Assembly (NCBI GenBank): GCA_963718875.1
Contig: OY970378.1
Location: 1,075,691-1,139,690 of the forward strand
Reading direction: 5' to 3'
Length of the DNA stretch: 64,000 bases
Source of the DNA: Candidatus Parcubacteria bacterium
GTDB lineage: Bacteria > Patescibacteriota > Saccharimonadia > UBA4664 > JBIOIQ01
Part shown: one piece after another, positions 1 to 37,413 of the stretch
How the letters are laid out: every line of letters begins with the position of its first letter
Position numbering within the stretch: the first letter of the stretch is position 1
The notes under the pieces: generated by a model
Told to the model about the DNA's origin: nothing
Seen by the model: only the letters and a program-made list of their open reading frames with translations
The model's database searches: none
Position numbers and translations under genes: made by a program

Positions 1-166
1 TGGAACAATATTCCAAAGCCTAAGCCCCGAAGATTATGTTGTCATACCGGAAATGCTTGCTAGCTAAGCCGCAAACCCTGTATATTCAACCGATACATAT
101 CCATTATACCTTCTATATATTTAGAAGTACGTAAGGTATGACCATTACGCTTATGCTAAAATAGAA

Positions 167-712
167 TTGGTGAAAGATATGCCTCTCAATCGACTTCAAG
201 AAACCATTTTGTATACCCTTGCTAAGGCTCACGACAAGGGTATTAATAACTTGTCTAAATTTCAGCTAATGAAGCTTGTTTATATGATTGAGATCAATTC
301 ACAGAGGTTCTTAGGTGAGTCTTTTATTCATAATGTGAAGTTCTACCGAGAAAAGAATGGCCCTATCTCATATGATATCTATAAGGCTGTAGACGAATTA
401 ACCAAAACCGGGTTTATTGAGGCGTGGGCTGAAGATAATACAGAGTATGGCCACCCTAGGCATTGCCACCGTATTAAGAAGCAGCCGGCCCAAGTAAGCT
501 TTGGAAAGTCGGAAAAAGTATTTTTGAATAGCATTCTAGAAGACTACTTGCCTCTAACCATAGCTAAGCTCAAAGCAGAGGCTTATAAAACCGAGCCAAT
601 GCAGAAAGCCCAGCAAGAAGAAAAAAGGCAGGGACACCCTCTCAACGGCCGTCCTTTAGACTTAGACACAGTTGCCTTGGACGAAGACATTCTTTCTGCA
701 ATCCTGGGGTAG
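167..712 (+). CDS. Panacea-domain (DUF4065/SocA-like) protein, putative antitoxin; ATG at 179 may be the true start (167 is TTG)
   Basis: ORF translation shows the DUF4065-like core (LMKLVYMIEI...GP) and an acidic C-terminus. Sits 4 nt upstream of a small MazF-like ORF. Confidence 0.5.
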   Translation: MVKDMPLNRLQETILYTLAKAHDKGINNLSKFQLMKLVYMIEINSQRFLGESFIHNVKFYREKNGPISYDIYKAVDELTKTGFIEAWAEDNTEYGHPRHCHRIKKQPAQVSFGKSEKVFLNSILEDYLPLTIAKLKAEAYKTEPMQKAQQEEKRQGHPLNGRPLDLDTVALDEDILSAILG

Positions 713-4863: not shown

Positions 4864-5958
4864 CTAGTCCGCCGATATTGCCAGTTGATTGAGTCCCACC
4901 CCGTTTAACGAAACGCTATATTCACTTACTTTAGCTGGTTCAGTTAACTTACTAGCTTCAAACACTGGCATTAGGTAGCCTGCGATAGTCTTTGCCGCTA
5001 CGGGGGGGACTGAATTGCCGATTTGCCTACGAACTTCCGTGATTGAGCCTTCGAAGATAAAGTCGTCAGGATAACCGAAAAGTCTAGCACGTTCCCTGTT
5101 AGTCAAAGGCCGTGGTTCTTCGTAATGATACCCCCAGGTGCCACCTCCGCCTCCTGCGATTATTGTGGTAGAGGGCTTGTTTTTGTCTAACCGACGATAT
5201 ACGTGGCTGATCATACCCTTAACATAGTAAGGACTATCTTTAGGCAAAGAGGAAAAATTGCCACCGGCGGGGATCAGTTTTAGCATTTCTCTGGTCTTGT
5301 CCTTGATATTCTGGTGCTCGTTGTTGTGGGGTACTTTTTCAACCCCCTCTAATGCCTCTCCAGCCGTTACGAAATTTCCGGCTGTGTGAGTGGGATCGGG
5401 TTTCTCGAAATTGAAATCAATGTCATTCCTGATACCAACTATCAATACACGTTCTCTCAATTGTGGTGCTCCATAGTGGGCGAAATTGTAGAGATCGGCT
5501 CGTATTTTGTATCCAAGTCGTGCGAAGTCCTCAATAATCTGTCGTATTGCCTTACCGTCATTCGCCGTTAGGAGGCCTTTAACGTTTTCAGCCACAAAAA
5601 CTTTTGGCTTCTTAGTTTCAACCGCACGTACAAAATGCTTGTACAGGTTTCCTCGGTCTGTTTCTAAACCGCCCCGTTTCCAAATCATTGAAAAATCCTG
5701 ACAGGGGAAACCACCGGTGATAATATCTGCGTCCGGTACTTTATTGAAATCGATATCCGTAATGCTAGCGTGGGTGATATGGGGGCCGAAATTACGTTCG
5801 TAGGTCTTGCAGGACGAGGCTTCAAAATCGTTAGCCCATACAACTTCAAAACCCGCTAGCTTGAAGCCAAGATCGAGCCCACCACAACCGGAAAATAGAG
5901 ATAAAAGCTTAGGACGTTTGGAAATTTTAGTATTCTTATTTATCATTTTCATACTCAT
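4864..5958 (-). CDS. DNA (cytosine-5)-methyltransferase
   Basis: Motif I LFSGCGGLDLGF, motif IV GGFPCQDFS and the ENV motif. Confidence 0.85.
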   Translation of the reverse strand: MSMKMINKNTKISKRPKLLSLFSGCGGLDLGFKLAGFEVVWANDFEASSCKTYERNFGPHITHASITDIDFNKVPDADIITGGFPCQDFSMIWKRGGLETDRGNLYKHFVRAVETKKPKVFVAENVKGLLTANDGKAIRQIIEDFARLGYKIRADLYNFAHYGAPQLRERVLIVGIRNDIDFNFEKPDPTHTAGNFVTAGEALEGVEKVPHNNEHQNIKDKTREMLKLIPAGGNFSSLPKDSPYYVKGMISHVYRRLDKNKPSTTIIAGGGGGTWGYHYEEPRPLTNRERARLFGYPDDFIFEGSITEVRRQIGNSVPPVAAKTIAGYLMPVFEASKLTEPAKVSEYSVSLNGVGLNQLAISAD

Positions 5959-6153
5959 ATACCCCTTTCGTATGATTATAGACTAAAGCGTTATAAATTG
6001 CCGCAACATTTTTCTCTGGAACGAAACTAATCTATTCGGCTTTTGTTCGGTATCTTTACTCTACGAGAATCGTCGAGAAAACACAACACTTAGTACTTAA
6101 TTTCTTAACACCTCAACGGGAGTGGAGGGTATGCTTTTTTATCGAAAAATACC

Positions 6154-15695: not shown

Positions 15696-15887
15696 TTACT
15701 GGCCGCCCTTCTGGACGTAACTGCGAACGAATTCTTCGGCGTTGTCCTCCAACACCTCGTCGATCTCGTCCAAGAGCTCGTCGAGCTCGGCCTTGAGCTT
15801 GTCACCTTGCTTGGCTGGGAGGGTCGTGTCCACCACCTCGTCTGTTCGAGTGGTGGATTGCTTCCTTTTCTGTTCCCTTTCGGCCAT
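15696..15887 (-). CDS. pup: prokaryotic ubiquitin-like protein Pup homologue (C-terminal GGQ)
   Basis: 63 aa. ...LDELLDEIDEVLEDNAEEFVRSYVQKGGQ is nearly identical in pattern to actinobacterial Pup. GAGGAG RBS. High-GC composition. Confidence 0.8.
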   Translation of the reverse strand: MAEREQKRKQSTTRTDEVVDTTLPAKQGDKLKAELDELLDEIDEVLEDNAEEFVRSYVQKGGQ

Positions 15888-17182: not shown

Positions 17183-17539
17183 TTATTTCCTTTTTTCGTC
17201 AACGTTTTCATTCTGTTCAGTATACCAGTCGGGGTTGGTGATGGTTAAAAGTTTAAGATGATTGCCAATTAGGTAGCTAGTGCTGCCGGAAGGTATAACG
17301 GCCACGTCACCAGGCAAAATGACGTCTTCTTTCCCATCTATGACTATCTGGGCGCTGCCTTCTAATACGTAATAAAACTCGTCACAAACGGTATTTTTTG
17401 CAGATCCATCAGCGGGGACTCGCCCATGAATCTCTTGGTAAGATAAGCCCATGCTAATACCGGGCAAGGCATAGTCATATAATTTTGACACTCCATTGTC
17501 TAGCTCTTTAACTCTGGTCTGTTTTCGAATAACAGTCAT
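17183..17539 (-). CDS. cupin domain protein
   Basis: Small beta-barrel pattern GDVAVIPSGSTSYLIGN. Confidence 0.6.
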   Translation of the reverse strand: MTVIRKQTRVKELDNGVSKLYDYALPGISMGLSYQEIHGRVPADGSAKNTVCDEFYYVLEGSAQIVIDGKEDVILPGDVAVIPSGSTSYLIGNHLKLLTITNPDWYTEQNENVDEKRK

Positions 17540-18081
17540 TGATGCAGCTTTCTTTTTAATTCCATTACAAGCTCATCAAAAGGTTTATCATATAAAAAGT
17601 GGCCGCGGTCATTCATTTCGTAATATTCGGTTTGCAACTGTTCGTGAACGAAGCGCGGTTCGTCGATGGGAATGTAAGGGTCGTCTGTGGAAGCGAACTG
17701 AATAATCCAACCTTGGTTGGATCGAATTGCTTCCCAATTCCAGGGTCGGTTAAAGTAACCGCTTTGCTTTTCGCCCTCGTCATCTAGGTCGGTGTGACTG
17801 GCTCCTATTAAAACTGATCCAAGAATGCGGTGGGTTTCGGCAAAGCGCATGGCGGCGATTGCTCCCGAAGAATGGCCAACTAGCACAGTGTTTTGGTCGG
17901 CCTTAAGCTCGTCCTGCAAGTAAGGGATCCAATATTGCTCACGGGCATGGACGGCGTCAGGGAAGTCGGGGCTAATCGCGGCAATGCCGGCATCTTTCAA
18001 TTTACGAACCACATCGGGCTGCCAATTATCTTGGCCGCTGGCGCCACCATTGCCGTGAATTAAAATTACTCGAATGCTCAT
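17536..18081 (-). CDS. alpha/beta serine hydrolase (YdeN/RBBP9-like)
   Basis: ILIHGNGG...GHSSGA nucleophile elbow. Start set at MSIRVILIHG (ATG 18081). Confidence 0.6.
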   Translation of the reverse strand: MSIRVILIHGNGGASGQDNWQPDVVRKLKDAGIAAISPDFPDAVHAREQYWIPYLQDELKADQNTVLVGHSSGAIAAMRFAETHRILGSVLIGASHTDLDDEGEKQSGYFNRPWNWEAIRSNQGWIIQFASTDDPYIPIDEPRFVHEQLQTEYYEMNDRGHFLYDKPFDELVMELKRKLHQ

Positions 18082-18100
18082 TTCTTTGTTTCCGATTCTT

Positions 18101-18160
18101 CTCCAAGGATACAAGAAACAAGAAGCAAGTTACAAACAACTTTCAAATTACAATATTCGG
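18101..18160. repeat. left arm of inverted-repeat element flanking the four-helix-bundle gene (CTCCAA..ATACAAGAAACAAG..ACAAACA..TTTCAAA)
   Basis: Homologous to 36415..36472 and inverted relative to 18533..18567. Confidence 0.5.
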
Positions 18161-18170
18161 AATCCACAGC

Positions 18171-18530
18171 CTAGCCCTGACTCTTAATAATGATGGCTGA
18201 AAGTATGTTTTTTAATTCGTTTGCCTCATTTTTTAATGTTTTAACCGAGATTCCATCGTTGGCTTCTTCAAGAAGCTCAAGCCAATGGAGGGTTTCTTTG
18301 GCTTCTTTACGAGCGGTTTTGAGCCTCAAGAGGAAATCTTTCTTGCCTAAAGCGTCATTTGCTTCTCGATAGTTTGCTCCGACGGAACCTGCAGACCCTA
18401 CTAGTTGGCCACAGATGCGACTATTTATTGAGTCCTTTGATACTGAACGGCACACTCGAACAACTTCACGGCCGAAAGCTGTCGTTCTGGCCTCTAGATC
18501 ATACTTTTGAACTGTTTCGGAATTGTTCAT
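18171..18530 (-). CDS. four-helix-bundle protein ('23S rRNA intervening sequence protein' / Avd-like family)
   Basis: ERTTAFGREVVRVC...GSAGSVGANYREA...RKEAKETLHWLEL pattern of the TIGR02436-type family. Confidence 0.75.
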   Translation of the reverse strand: MNNSETVQKYDLEARTTAFGREVVRVCRSVSKDSINSRICGQLVGSAGSVGANYREANDALGKKDFLLRLKTARKEAKETLHWLELLEEANDGISVKTLKNEANELKNILSAIIIKSQG

Positions 18531-18532
18531 TG

Positions 18533-18567
18533 AGCTTTGTTTGTATCCTTGTCTCTTGTATCTTGTT
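18533..18567. repeat. right arm of inverted-repeat element (TTTGTTTGTATCCTTGTCTCTTGTATCTTGTT)
   Basis: CTTGTATC-type heptamer repeats. Homologous to 36500..36541. Confidence 0.5.
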
Positions 18568-18580
18568 ACTTGCGTCAGTT

Positions 18581-20098
18581 CTACTTAGCAAATTCCATAG
18601 CACGGGTTTCACGAATAACATTCACTTTGATCGTTCCGGGGTATTTGAGAGTGGCTTCAATTTTAGTAGCCATGTCGCGGGCAAGCTTGATAGCGGAGAG
18701 GTCATCGATTTGCTCAGGGCGGACTATAACGCGAATTTCACGGCCGGCGCTGATGGCGTAAGCCTTGTTGATGCCAGGAAAGGTCATTGCGATGTTTTCG
18801 AGATCGGTCATACGCTTAGCGTAATTTTCGAGTGTGTCGCCTCGGGCACCAGGACGGCCGGCGCTGAGAGCATCGACAACCCGCACCACTAGAGCTTCAA
18901 CCGTGGTGGCTTCGATATCGTCATGATGGGCCTCGGCTGCGTGAGCGATTGTTTCATCCATACCATATTTACGGATGAGCATGCCCGAAATATGGTGATG
19001 GTTGCCTTCAATTTCATGGGTCATGGCTTTACCAATGTCGTGTAGTAGCGCAGCGGTTTTACAAATACGCACGTCGGCACCCAGTTCGGCAGCGATCATG
19101 CCGGCCATGTGGCCCATTTCCACAGAGTGACCCAACACATTTTGACTAAAACTGGTGCGGAACTTAAGTTGGCCTACTATTTGAACGAGCTCTGGTGGAA
19201 TACCGACTACGCCAACTTCTTTAATAGCCATTTCGCCGGCGTCTTTAATTATTTTATCAATTTCTTCTTCGGCTTTTGCAACTACCTCTTCGATCCTGGC
19301 TGGGTGGACTCGACCGTCGGCCAATAACTTTTCGATTGCTACCCTAGCCACCTGTCGGCGGATGGGGTCAAAACTGGAAAGCACAATTACGCCGGGTGTT
19401 TCGTCGATTAGTACATCGACTCCGGTAGCGCGCTCAATGGCTTGGATGTTACGGCCTTCTTTCCCTATGATCCGGCCTTTCATTTCATCACTAGGGATGG
19501 CAACAGTGGTAACTGTACGTTCGCTGGTTTGGTCGGAAGCAACCCTTTCCATAGCGCTTGCCACAATCATGCGAGCTTGCTCGTCGGCGGTTTCTTTGGC
19601 GGTGTCTTTAAGCTTATCAACCAACTTTACAAGATCAGTTTTAATGTCTCGCTCTGTCATGGCCATGAGCTTGTCTTTGGCTTCGTCTTTACTAAGCTTG
19701 GCAATTTTTTCGAGTGTTTCTTGTTGCTTGGTGCGCATGGAACGAATATCGTTTTTTAACTCCTCGAGCTCGGTTTCACTTTTTCGTAAAGCCTCGCCAC
19801 GCCTATCAAGCTCTTCAATTTTGCGGTCGAGGGTTGTTTCGCGGCTGCTAACGCGATTTTCGATTTCAGTAAGCTGTTTGCGCCGTTCACCATCTTCGCG
19901 TTTGCTTTCCTCGCTGGCTCGTAATGCCTGGGTCTTGGCCTCGAGAACAGTTTCTTTGGCTTTGGCTTCGGCATCGGACAGAATTTTAGCAGCCTTAGAG
20001 TCGGCTGAGTCGGTTTTGCGCTTGGCTATTACCATGTTGGCACCAAAACCAGCCCCACCGCCTAGCACGAGTGCGGCAATTACAAATAAAGCTAGCAT
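18581..20098 (-). CDS. rny: ribonuclease Y
   Basis: N-terminal TM helix, coiled coil, KH domain, HD domain (LLHDIGKA, HH...). Confidence 0.9.
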   Translation of the reverse strand: MLALFVIAALVLGGGAGFGANMVIAKRKTDSADSKAAKILSDAEAKAKETVLEAKTQALRASEESKREDGERRKQLTEIENRVSSRETTLDRKIEELDRRGEALRKSETELEELKNDIRSMRTKQQETLEKIAKLSKDEAKDKLMAMTERDIKTDLVKLVDKLKDTAKETADEQARMIVASAMERVASDQTSERTVTTVAIPSDEMKGRIIGKEGRNIQAIERATGVDVLIDETPGVIVLSSFDPIRRQVARVAIEKLLADGRVHPARIEEVVAKAEEEIDKIIKDAGEMAIKEVGVVGIPPELVQIVGQLKFRTSFSQNVLGHSVEMGHMAGMIAAELGADVRICKTAALLHDIGKAMTHEIEGNHHHISGMLIRKYGMDETIAHAAEAHHDDIEATTVEALVVRVVDALSAGRPGARGDTLENYAKRMTDLENIAMTFPGINKAYAISAGREIRVIVRPEQIDDLSAIKLARDMATKIEATLKYPGTIKVNVIRETRAMEFAK

Positions 20099-35376: not shown

Positions 35377-36408
35377 TTAGAGGAGAGTCGTTTGGTCAAT
35401 TGTAGTGGGCGGTTGAACGCCAAGGTGTAGATAAGCCTTGGGCGTAACCTTGCGACCACGGTTGGTGCGTTCAAGTAACCCGAGTTGCATTAAGTAAGGC
35501 TCATAGACATCTTCTACGGTAGCTTTTTCTTCTGAACAAATAGCCGCAATCGTCTCAATCCCCACCGGCCCACCTGCGTAATGCTCGATAATAGCAGACA
35601 AAATACGGCGGTCATTGGCATCTAGGCCTAGTTCGTCAATTTCCAGCATATCCAGTGCTTGTCCGGCCAAGCTAACATTAATGGTGCCACTCCCATTAAC
35701 CTGGGCAAAGTCCCTCACCCTTTTAAGTAAGCGGTTAGCTATGCGAGGCGTCAAGCGAGAGCGTTTGGCAACTTCGGCGGCCGAAGCCTGGTCTATGTCG
35801 ACATTTAAAATACCAGCGGCGCGTTGAAGGATTTGTTCAATCTCAGCCTGTGAATAGTATTCAAAGCGGTGGACAATGCCAAAGCGGTCACGTAGCGGCG
35901 CCGACAGCGCTCCTACTCGAGTAGTAGCTCCAATAAGAGTAAATTTGGGCAGGTCGAGCCGAATCGACTTTGCCGATGGACCTTTGCCCAGCATAACGTC
36001 AATACCGTAGTCTTCCATGGCAGGATATAAAACTTCTTCGACTGTTTTAGGCAGACGATGGATTTCGTCAACAAATAATATGTCACCATCACTTAAGTTT
36101 GTCAGGATCGACGCCAGGTCTCCAGCCCGTTCAATAGCCGGTCCGCTAGTGACTCTAAGTCCTGACCGCATTTCAGCGGCTATCACGCCCGCCATAGTAG
36201 TTTTACCTAAACCCGGGGGACCATATAGCAATACGTGGTCTACCGGCTCGCCGCGCTTGCTAGCTGCTTCAATAGCGAGCTGCAGGTTGTCCTTAATGGC
36301 TCTTTGGCCAATTAGACTGGCAAAGCTTCGTGGCCGCAGGGTTTCTTCAATTTGCTGCTCGCCTGGGTCTAGCTGCTCCTCGTCGGCGGCCGTGATTCGC
36401 TCAATCAT
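35377..36408 (-). CDS. ruvB: Holliday junction branch migration ATPase RuvB
   Basis: [15 protein letters not shown], sensor motifs. Confidence 0.95.
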
Positions 36409-36414
36409 CGCTTA

Positions 36415-36541
36415 CTCCAACCAACAAGATACAAGAAACAAGGCACAAACAGACTCCTACTTTCAAAATCCAAAGAGTTTGATTATTGAATATTGATACT
36501 TGGAGATTCTTTGTATCTTGTATCTTGTATCTTGTATCTTT
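36415..36541. repeat. 'empty' copy of the inverted-repeat element: left arm CAACAAGATACAAGAAACAAGG, ~65-nt spacer, right arm (CTTGTAT)x4
   Basis: Left arm 36425..36443 is the near reverse complement of 36511..36530, 17 of 19 positions. Homologous to the arms at 18101..18160 and 18533..18567. Confidence 0.5.
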
Positions 36542-36546
36542 AAAAA

Positions 36547-37113
36547 TCATCGTGCGGCCTTTAATGCTGCCTTAATCCGTTCTTGATCGCCTGTTACGCT
36601 AGCTGGTATTTTGGCAACGGCGGCGGCGGCTTGAACAGGAGTGAAGCCCAATCCTACTAAAGCCTGATAAGCCGCATCGCCTTCAGCGGCGGCATTGGAA
36701 TGGACGTCATTTAGCTTCCCCCGTAACTCCACAATAATCCGCTCGGCGGTTTTTTTACCTACTCCGGCAGTGCCTTTGAGCAAATCTGAATCGCCGCTGG
36801 CAATAGCTTGCTGCAAGCGCGATAAAGAGGCGGCTGAAAGCACTGCCAAGGCTACTTTTGGACCTACACCACTAACGCCAAGGAGGGAGGTAAATAAATC
36901 CTTGGCCGCTAGTTCGCTAAATCCAAATAAGTTATGGGCGTCCTCTCGGATTTGTTCATATATATAGTAGCGGCCCTCTTGACCCACTTTGGCAGCACCC
37001 CAATCAGAGGTTGCAACGTGCAACTCATATTCAACCGCTCCCGCGCCTACCAGTAGGGTATCGGGCAATTTTTCGGTCACTAGTCCTGTAATTCGCCCAA
37101 TCAATTTTGACAC
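36547..37113 (-). CDS. ruvA: Holliday junction DNA helicase RuvA
   Basis: Domains I-III, HhH motifs. Confidence 0.9.
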   Translation of the reverse strand: MSKLIGRITGLVTEKLPDTLLVGAGAVEYELHVATSDWGAAKVGQEGRYYIYEQIREDAHNLFGFSELAAKDLFTSLLGVSGVGPKVALAVLSAASLSRLQQAIASGDSDLLKGTAGVGKKTAERIIVELRGKLNDVHSNAAAEGDAAYQALVGLGFTPVQAAAAVAKIPASVTGDQERIKAALKAAR

Positions 37114-37197
37114 TCAGACAGTAGGAAGAAGGCAGAAGGCGGTAGTTTTTGATAGTACTGACCCCTGATGCCTGACCCCTGATGCCTATAACGAGAT

Positions 37198-37413
37198 TTA
37201 GTGAACATGAGATTTAGCTTTTAGCTCGATCATATCGGCTGAGTGTTCATGGATGACGCCCTTTATTATTTGGATATCAGATTTTACCTCTGCCATATCG
37301 GTCTTAAGCACGCCGATATCCTCACGAGTAGCAAGAACCACCTCAACTACACCATCAATCTTTGAGTGCAGATCTTCTAAAATAACTTCAAAATGTTCTT
37401 TTTTCACATTCAT
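37198..37413 (-). CDS. small hypothetical protein
   Basis: 71-aa ORF. Confidence 0.35.
   Translation of the reverse strand: MNVKKEHFEVILEDLHSKIDGVVEVVLATREDIGVLKTDMAEVKSDIQIIKGVIHEHSADMIELKAKSHVH

Follow-up and report, generated by a model that had tools for sequence, protein, structure and literature searches.

To our knowledge, no function has been assigned since 1993 to the four-helix-bundle (4HB) open reading frame (ORF) of intervening sequences (IVSs). The 23S rRNA IVS of Coxiella burnetii is 428–444 nt long, has a 28-bp terminal stem, and carries three tandem GACAGAT heptamers directly 5′ of the AUG of its S23p (PF05635) ORF; the heptamer copy number differs between strains, the Shine–Dalgarno sequence is poor, RNase III cleaves at the start of the first repeat, and the ORF has been described as decaying and probably not translated (Warrier et al., PMC4990558). 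Insertions in the rRNA of the candidate phyla radiation (CPR) sometimes carry 23S_rRNA_IVP ORFs (PMC11270868). Here we analyzed 64,000 nt of a Saccharimonadia genome (Candidatus Parcubacteria bacterium, assembly GCA_963718875.1, contig OY970378.1, forward-strand positions 1,075,691–1,139,690), hereafter the window, with positions counted from its first letter. A 4HB gene of the same family lies there between oppositely oriented heptamer arrays in the spacer that separates rny from a serine-hydrolase gene (site A), and a related copy that lacks the ORF lies between ruvA and ruvB (site B). The reading toward which we lean is that the locus is an IVS-type insertion cassette in operon spacers, with a stem that is probably an RNase III substrate. 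IVS elements have so far been treated as a curiosity of 23S rRNA; here they occur in mRNA spacers of conserved operons in ultrasmall CPR genomes, which shifts the focus from rRNA fragmentation to the role of the cassette and its protein.

Like the 23S rRNA IVSs of the Coxiella burnetii, Leptospira, and Xanthomonas/Brucella type, the element has a ∼120-aa PF05635 ORF at the apex of a terminal-inverted-repeat stem, tandem heptamers of variable copy number directly 5′ of the AUG (GACAGAT in Coxiella, GAUACAA here), a poor or absent Shine–Dalgarno motif, apparent read-through transcription from the host, and short ORF-less versions. In contrast to them, the window elements lie in mRNA spacers between protein genes and not in helix 25 or 45 of the 23S rRNA. 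The terminal inverted repeats that enclose the insert and the heptamers 5′ of the ORF are thus present as in Coxiella, but the flanks are rny/hydrolase and ruvA/ruvB rather than the helix of a 23S or 16S rRNA gene. Because this defining location is absent, we class the element as IVS-like in its working and not as a member of the rRNA IVSs. Two further differences from the Coxiella IVS are that the ORF of the window type is under strong purifying selection and that RNase III cleavage is proposed here by analogy.

The protein also shares its fold and superfamily with Avd of the diversity-generating retroelements (DGRs), a small and basic four-helix bundle that assembles into pentamers and acts on RNA beside its own gene. 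However, the neighbors here are housekeeping genes, and sequence identity to Avd is only 12–13%. Near the 4HB ORF, whose neighbors encode RNase Y, the serine hydrolase, and a cupin protein, we found neither a reverse transcriptase nor a direct repeat of the template-repeat/variable-repeat type, and DGR membership was rejected for lack of both. The element resembles the systems of repetitive extragenic palindromes (REPs), namely bacterial interspersed mosaic elements (BIMEs) and the REP doublets (REPINs) of REP-associated tyrosine transposases (RAYTs), in that short palindromic repeats are scattered in operon spacers; as with REPIN/RAYT, inverted copies around a small gene are the minority, and gene-less copies are far more numerous. 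Unlike in REPIN/RAYT, the flanked gene encodes no Y1 transposase, and the repeats are variable 7-nt arrays instead of a fixed 20–40-nt palindrome. Cyanobacterial short tandemly repeated repetitive (STRR) sequences are heptanucleotide arrays. Heptameric simple sequence repeats (SSRs) are overrepresented in many bacterial genomes, and polymerase slippage has been hypothesized, with no function assigned (PMC4692102). The window arrays share with STRR and the bacterial heptameric SSRs their tandem 7-nt units in intergenic and structured-RNA contexts (PMC4692102), but in the window they come as two arrays of opposite orientation that enclose either an ORF or a short loop.

Anatomy of the Occupied Element at rny|hydrolase

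All features of site A lie on the minus strand, in the order rny (18581..20098; RNase_Y_N, KH, and HD domains), 4HB ORF (18171..18530), serine-hydrolase gene (17536..18081), and cupin gene. The spacer from the rny stop to the 4HB AUG is 50 nt long and reads AACUGACGCAAGUAACAAGAUACAAGAGACAAGGAUACAAACAAAGCUCA in mRNA sense; the 89 nt 3′ of the 4HB stop include GUUGUUUGUAACUUGCUUCUUGUUUCUUGUAUCCUUGGAG, again in mRNA sense. The 5′ arm (18536..18576) occupies the first of these spacers. It is A/C-rich and is built of ∼5 7-nt units (GUAACAA GAUACAA GAGACAA GGAUACAA ACAA), and a tandem-repeat finder reported a period-7 repeat at 18541–18566. The ORF that follows has no Shine–Dalgarno motif and encodes 119 aa of the PF05635/TIGR02436 “23S rRNA IVS protein” family. 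Between its stop and the 3′ arm lies an inner 3′ segment (18141..18170; GCUGUGGAUUCCGAAUAUUGUAAUUUGAAA), at the 3′ end of which starts a UUUGAAAGU motif that the alignment of the two sites places at site B as well. The 3′ arm (18104..18140) consists of U/G-rich repeats, GUUGUUUGUAACUUGCUUCUUGUUUCUUGUAUCCUUG, that are complementary to those of the 5′ arm. The element closes with UUGGAG, which also ends the ORF-less copy, and a 19-nt spacer to the hydrolase AUG (18082..18106 together); to judge from this distance, the UUGGAG of site A is probably too far from the AUG for a typical Shine–Dalgarno sequence.

The arms are joined by three mutually overlapping inverted pairs: 18112–18135 with 18549–18572 (24 nt, 79% complementary), 18108–18122 with 18548–18562 (15 nt, 93%), and 18104–18114 with 18541–18551 (11 nt, 100%). 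The initial annotation had described imperfect inverted arms at these positions, and this description held. It had also called the arms rich in heptamers; these are present, although the tandem-repeat finder resolves them into period-7 arrays on both sides of the ORF and not merely into scattered words. In the minimum-free-energy fold of a 516-nt RNA, the arms are paired and the whole ORF is enclosed (z = −2.2).

An ORF-Less Copy Between ruvA and ruvB

Site B is a 138-nt spacer, also read on the minus strand, that runs from the ruvA stop (36547) to the ruvB start (36408), begins with (GAUACAA)×4, and finishes with UUUGUGCCUUGUUUCUUGUAUCUUGUUGGUUGGAGUAAGCG. Its 5′ arm (36508..36544) follows the ruvA stop immediately and consists of (GAUACAA)×4 plus AGAAUC, which the tandem-repeat finder scored as 4.3 copies of a period-7 repeat with a 100% match. 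The apical part (36449..36507) comprises an imperfect inner stem and a 12-nt loop and takes the place where the ORF sits in occupied elements. The 3′ arm (36411..36448) is UUUGUGCCUUGUUUCUUGUAUCUUGUUGG followed by UUGGAG. Here the GGAG lies 7 nt 5′ of the ruvB AUG, a distance compatible with a Shine–Dalgarno sequence, and UUGGAG is retained 8 nt 5′ of the AUG in two relatives (L212 and L214). The inverted arms (36424–36441 and 36511–36528) are 18 nt long, 94% complementary, and 69 nt apart, so that the pairing of 17 of 19 positions first noted for this site was essentially right; they form part of a 50-nt imperfect palindrome (36424–36473 and 36486–36535). The RNA forms one long hairpin (−45.6 kcal/mol, z = −6.3), and none of 200 shuffles was equally stable. 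The ORF-less copy is flanked on both sides by an exact 8-bp direct repeat, AATCATCG (sense CGAUGAUU), of which the left unit (36545..36552) holds the ruvA stop codon and the right unit (36403..36410) the ruvB start codon.

The two sites are akin. Site A without its ORF is 74% identical to site B over 121 aligned nucleotides, and the alignment score of 118 lies ∼9 SDs above that of shuffles (54.6 ± 6.9). In the window, we counted the word CTTGTATC eight times where 1.7 would be expected, and none of 100 shuffles attained eight; six of the eight copies fall at sites A and B. No second 4HB gene was found in the window, and repeat scans of the window turned up no further hairpin of GAUACAA-type heptamers. 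Other 7-nt arrays are present at 37119..37187, between a 71-aa ORF (37198..37413, minus strand) and ruvA: four copies of GGCAUCA/GGGGUCA and then three of CCUUCUG. These may be a third, degenerate array element; the corresponding spacers are shorter in relatives.

Recurrence Across CPR Genomes

We examined the DNA around 83 relatives of the protein and used 66 CPR elements with full flanks for the arm statistics. Among the matches listed from JGI metagenomes, 582 of 600 candidate stretches encode a relative. When the flanks were printed, an A/C-rich, 7-nt-periodic array appeared 5′ of the AUG and a complementary U/G-rich array 3′ of the stop almost everywhere. A significant inverted arm pair was present in 55 of the 66 elements, at different loci, with a median arm length of 34 nt. 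Because the 5′ arm ends a median of 6 nt before the AUG and the 3′ arm starts a median of 22 nt after the stop, the ORF is placed at the apex of the hairpin. Autocorrelation at lag 7 was 0.46 in both flanks compared with ∼0.32 at other lags, and strongly 7-periodic segments were 15-fold enriched in the flanks relative to the rest of the locus.

The heptamer itself varies between elements (ACAAGAU, ACCAAUA, AAUCACA, AAACAGC, AAAAUCC, and others), while the arms within one element match. Duplexes of an element’s own arms had a mean of −45.3 kcal/mol, compared with −36.4 for arms taken from different elements and −28.2 for shuffles, and own arms paired better than non-own arms in 52 of the 66 elements (p = 4 × 10−7). 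The window copies, therefore, belong to a recurrent family of elements and are no local accident. The arms are not confined to the two window sites, and the proposal of the initial annotation that the 4HB gene is cargo of an IVS-like stem-loop that also exists in a cargo-less form is borne out at unrelated CPR operon junctions; ORF-less hairpins are common.

A second 5′-type arm with a short loop was seen 3′ of the ORF in 12 of the 66 elements (L013, L024/L025, L002, L072, L028, and others). These have the layout 5′ arm–ORF–5′ arm–loop–3′ arm, an arrangement that would result from entry of the ORF into one arm, the 5′ one, of a preexisting hairpin.

Gain, Loss, and Replacement in Close Relatives

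RuvA homologues assign the organism to Saccharimonadia. We compared both sites with the orthologous spacers of relatives. At ruvA|ruvB, the relative L212 (RuvA 85% identical) has a 152-nt hairpin made from other heptamers (AGACACA, AGAUGCA), together with a 7-bp duplication, CGATGAT. In L213 (RuvA 80% identical), there is no spacer at all, and the ruvA TGA overlaps the ruvB ATG (ATGA; CGATGATTGAA); this uninterrupted junction has a single CGATGATT, where the window has the two bracketing copies of the 8-bp repeat. In L214 (RuvA 78% identical), a 64-nt remnant spacer contains only (UUUUCAA)×3.

The rny|hydrolase junction varies as well. In a syntenic relative (tsaE-tsaB-rny-hydrolase-cupin-...-HU-Pup), the element is missing and only 1 nt separates rny from the hydrolase gene, as read from gene coordinates alone. 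At the same junction in L215 (positions 1..195; hydrolase 78% identical), a 4HB ORF of a different subfamily is truncated after ...ETKYWLLL* and followed by (TGGAAAA)×3, a case of replacement or decay at one site. The comparison that the initial annotation had called for thus demonstrated insertion polymorphism at both window sites. Since relatives have empty or replaced sites, both window copies are insertions, and the sites turn over. The relatives also supply natural pairs of filled and empty sites for study.

A target-site duplication is not general. Across 50 elements, the longest word common to both flanks came to 4.88 nt whether own or non-own pairs were compared, and at ruvA|ruvB, four of the eight duplicated bases were needed in any case to preserve the stop and start codons. 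A transposon-type mechanism is not established.

Within such hairpins, spurious ORFs of 44–52 aa had been called (as in L212, 1416..1574), and the L213 contig terminates ∼130 nt past the ruvA stop. The arrays disturb annotation and possibly also short-read assembly.

The Four-Helix-Bundle Protein

The 119-aa ORF matched Pfam PF05635 at 8.5 × 10−13 (48.9 bits; cutoff 33.8) and NCBIfam TIGR02436, “four helix bundle protein,” at 9.2 × 10−19 (67.7 bits; cutoff 24), and a profile of the ORF and its relatives matched PDB entry 2RLD at 1.1 × 10−19. An AlphaFold2 model of the monomer (pLDDT 92.9) has helices at residues 12–29, 34–59, 63–90, and 97–118. Foldseek searches with this model returned 2RLD (E = 3 × 10−5, TM 0.75–0.82), 2GSC (TM ∼0.8), and Avd structures 4DWL and 8UB7 (TM ∼0.7). 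The predicted fold is, thus, a four-helix bundle resembling 2RLD and 2GSC.

The family is large. At E ≤ 1 × 10−5, we obtained 2042 clusters at 90% identity, the best 120 of which are 60–74% identical to the protein; the named members among these best 120 all come from CPR/Patescibacteria. A search with a profile of the family yielded 10,844 clusters (50% identity) at E ≤ 1 × 10−3. The ORF is under strong purifying selection, with a dN/dS of 0.07 between the orthologous ORFs of L032 and L035 and a pN of 0.07 against a pS of 0.80 between those of L001 and L011.

Genomic Setting and Expression Signals

The upstream gene was codirectional with the ORF in 54 of 59 elements and the downstream gene in 52 of 55, and a median of 61 nt separated the upstream stop from the AUG. 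Host junctions include atpA|atpG (L001, L011), nusG|rplK (L032, L035), sugar-nucleotide genes, and ABC-transporter genes. The initial annotation had placed the elements in intergenic spacers of mRNAs, adjacent to rny. Operon spacers are indeed the setting, but the adjacency to rny is incidental, because the neighboring genes change from one locus to the next; on the same ground, we rejected a functional link to the adjoining rny. Comparison with E. coli rrnH found no rRNA in the 210 loci examined, and the elements are, therefore, not misassembled rRNA IVSs, an explanation that this result ruled out.

Only 2 of the 66 ORFs have a Shine–Dalgarno-like motif, and the leader is A-rich and G-poor. 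On the coding strand of the arms of either window copy, we found no σ70-like promoter (−35/−10 hexamers) and no intrinsic terminator (GC-rich stem plus U-tract), so the arms match the consensus of neither; the finding of such sequences as ordinary promoters in relatives had been named as an outcome that would overturn the proposal. Rfam at the gathering threshold reported tRNAs only in the 64-kb window, and PADLOC and PHROGs gave no match. A search limited to the 64-kb window found no RNase III signature in it. A scan of viral contigs for the conserved word of the 3′ arm gave six matches, all by chance and with no arrays nearby.

Association of 4HB Genes with Heptamer Arrays

Scanning species-representative genomes for CTTGTNTCTTGTNTCTTG returned at least 120 stretches, which, among the matches listed, come from many CPR phyla, Bacteroidota, Omnitrophota, Planctomycetota, Desulfobacterota, and others. 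A 4HB gene was present in only 5 of 120 array loci among these listed matches. Several of the CPR matches are ORF-less hairpins (e.g., L100, L102, and L178), and many others are plain arrays. In one Saccharibacteria contig (L093, ∼5940..5990), (GAGACAA)×4 stands in frame at the 5′ end of an rplX-like ORF (MRDKRQETRDKRIKIRLKKGD...), and arrays may there be read as N-terminal protein extensions.

Starting from the protein, a direction in which the association proved much closer, we sought 4HB genes outside the CPR with a broader iterated profile; a hidden Markov model built from CPR members alone missed them. In Chitinophaga (L092), a 4HB gene lies between thiolase and fadB-like genes with inverted (AGACACA)n arrays on both sides, and L184, L185, and L194 have 4HB genes with inverted flanking arrays of other heptamers. 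Searches with tblastn gave 12 plasmid-borne 4HB genes, from Nostoc, Anabaena, Calothrix, Pseudanabaena, Picosynechococcus, Stanieria, Geminocystis, Riemerella, and Gemmatirosa, and 11 of the 12 have 7–8-nt arrays on at least one flank, mostly inverted. Cyanobacterial 4HB genes in the sample are also flanked by 7–8-nt arrays. Three of these plasmid genes, with flanking arrays, lie inside CRISPR-Cas operons of cyanobacterial plasmids (L216, L217, and L223): at cas6|cas4 in Pseudanabaena and in Anabaena sp. 90 (type I-D in the latter) and at cas10|cmr3 in Picosynechococcus (type III-B). Direct orientation of the flanking arrays was seen in Pseudanabaena, with (AAAAGCU)n and (AAAAGCC)n, and in Gemmatirosa, with (CUCCUGCC)n (L216 and L221); no stem around the 4HB gene can, therefore, form there. 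In the literature searched, no paper links heptamer arrays to PF05635 genes in general, and among the papers found, heptameric repeats in an IVS are mentioned only for Coxiella (PMC4990558).

Proposed Working of the Cassette and Alternative Explanations

In the reading of the locus as an IVS-type cassette, a conserved, functional 4HB gene occupies the tip of a long, imperfect hairpin, the arms of which are oppositely oriented arrays of ∼7-nt repeats. The cassette entered the operon spacer between rny and the hydrolase gene of this Saccharimonadia genome, and a second member without the ORF entered the ruvA/ruvB stop–start overlap. Having no promoter or terminator of its own, the element would be read through from the host operon as part of a presumed cotranscript. 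The arms would then pair in this transcript to give a stem of ∼25–35 bp, and by analogy with 23S rRNA IVSs, RNase III would most likely cut the stem. Such a cut would part the upstream and downstream cistrons and free the 4HB message, with a possible effect on host expression.

Several of our results weigh against this proposal. The stems are imperfect, with a median complementarity of 85%, and the orthologous hairpin of L212 is no better than its shuffles (z = −1.3). Mismatches in the arms show no bias of G:U over A:C (58 G:U-compatible vs. 48 A:C, with 204 transversions), so that RNA-level selection on the stem cannot be claimed, and folding of the sense strand has only a slight edge over that of the antisense strand (p = 0.04). 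The processing stem offered in the initial annotation as one reading, therefore, keeps the Coxiella analogy in its favor but gains nothing from the arm mismatches. Some members outside the CPR have direct rather than inverted arrays (L216 and L221), and the stem is, therefore, not a universal requirement. Finally, the ORF is strongly conserved here whereas the Coxiella ORF is decaying, which makes a purely “neutral IVS” picture incomplete.

The same units can also be read as a partnership between protein and repeat like that of RAYT and REPIN, in which the 7-nt arrays, as RNA or as DNA, would be the substrate of a putatively pentameric 4HB protein. ORF-bearing copies would then be “masters,” ORF-less arrays would be made, maintained, or used in trans, and the stem would be secondary. 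We entertain this as a possibility and grant it tentative credence. Nearly every 4HB gene sampled, in several phyla, has flanking 7–8-nt arrays; arrays far outnumber genes, as the 5 of 120 loci among the matches listed show; direct arrays such as those of L216 and L221 would be more in keeping with binding sites than with a stem; purifying selection on the ORF is strong; and the homologue Avd (4DWL and 8UB7 in Foldseek) is a pentamer that binds RNA and reverse transcriptase. Sequence-specific recognition, however, fits poorly with a nearly invariant protein motif that accompanies heptamers as different as ACAAGAU, ACCAAUA, AAUCACA, and AAACAGC, and the excess of heptameric SSRs in many bacteria has been attributed to polymerase slippage (PMC4692102). 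The partnership and the IVS cassette are not mutually exclusive. In its widest form, which we put forward with the same reserve, the idea is that PF05635 proteins might be dedicated partners (binders, makers, or mobilizers) of bacterial heptanucleotide arrays, and that the 4HB-in-arrays unit together with the gene-less arrays might be a widespread selfish or semidomesticated system. If this were true, the system would invade any transcribed spacer, be it in rRNA helices (the classical IVSs), at operon junctions, or in CRISPR-Cas operons; the overrepresentation of heptameric repeats, STRR among others, that has long been noted in many bacterial genomes would have a cause; and a family of more than 10,000 protein clusters would have a function. 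We regard the association of 4HB genes with heptamers as the most interesting lead of this analysis.

An element of the miniature inverted-repeat transposable element (MITE) kind, which the initial annotation had named as its other reading, would act at the level of DNA: the arms would be terminal inverted repeats for a transposase encoded elsewhere, the 4HB gene a passenger, and the ruvA|ruvB copy nonautonomous. The presence/absence polymorphism among relatives would be explained, as would the exact duplication of AATCATCG around the ORF-less copy, which is single in the uninterrupted relative and has a 7-bp counterpart in L212, and arm mismatches that lack an RNA wobble bias. We nevertheless judge this unlikely, given the negative result of the duplication test in 50 elements and the bases at ruvA|ruvB that the codons require anyway. 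In addition, the arms are arrays that vary in sequence and length instead of defined termini, no transposase is associated with the elements, and the strict co-orientation of the ORF with host genes would be unexpected for a DNA transposon unless selection filters insertions. A hairpin that evolved in place as a regulatory or stability element (an mRNA stabilizer of the REP kind), with the 4HB gene as an ordinary operon member and no insertion, would agree with copies in operon spacers that lack promoter and terminator, with the stable fold, and with a GGAG at the correct distance 5′ of ruvB. It is, however, very improbable, and the presence/absence data already largely refute it: CPR lineages that are not related to one another carry the unit of arms plus ORF at junctions that are likewise unrelated, syntenic relatives in which the flanking genes abut or overlap lack it, and one further relative has another 4HB type in its place. 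There remains the thought that the arms match by chance or through the composition of A/C-rich and G/U-rich low-complexity sequence. Shuffled A/C-rich and U/G-rich flanks do still reach duplexes of −28 kcal/mol, and the L212 hairpin is no better than its own shuffles, but such an artefact is refuted by the excess of CTTGTATC (8 vs. 1.7), the alignment of sites A and B, and the better pairing of own than of non-own arms in a unit that recurs at dozens of independent loci.

Other Features of the Window

A 63-aa ORF at 15696..15887 on the minus strand matched Pfam Pup (prokaryotic ubiquitin-like) and ends in ...QKGGQ. This Pup-like ORF is kept in the syntenic relative; it looks unexpected for a Saccharimonadia genome.

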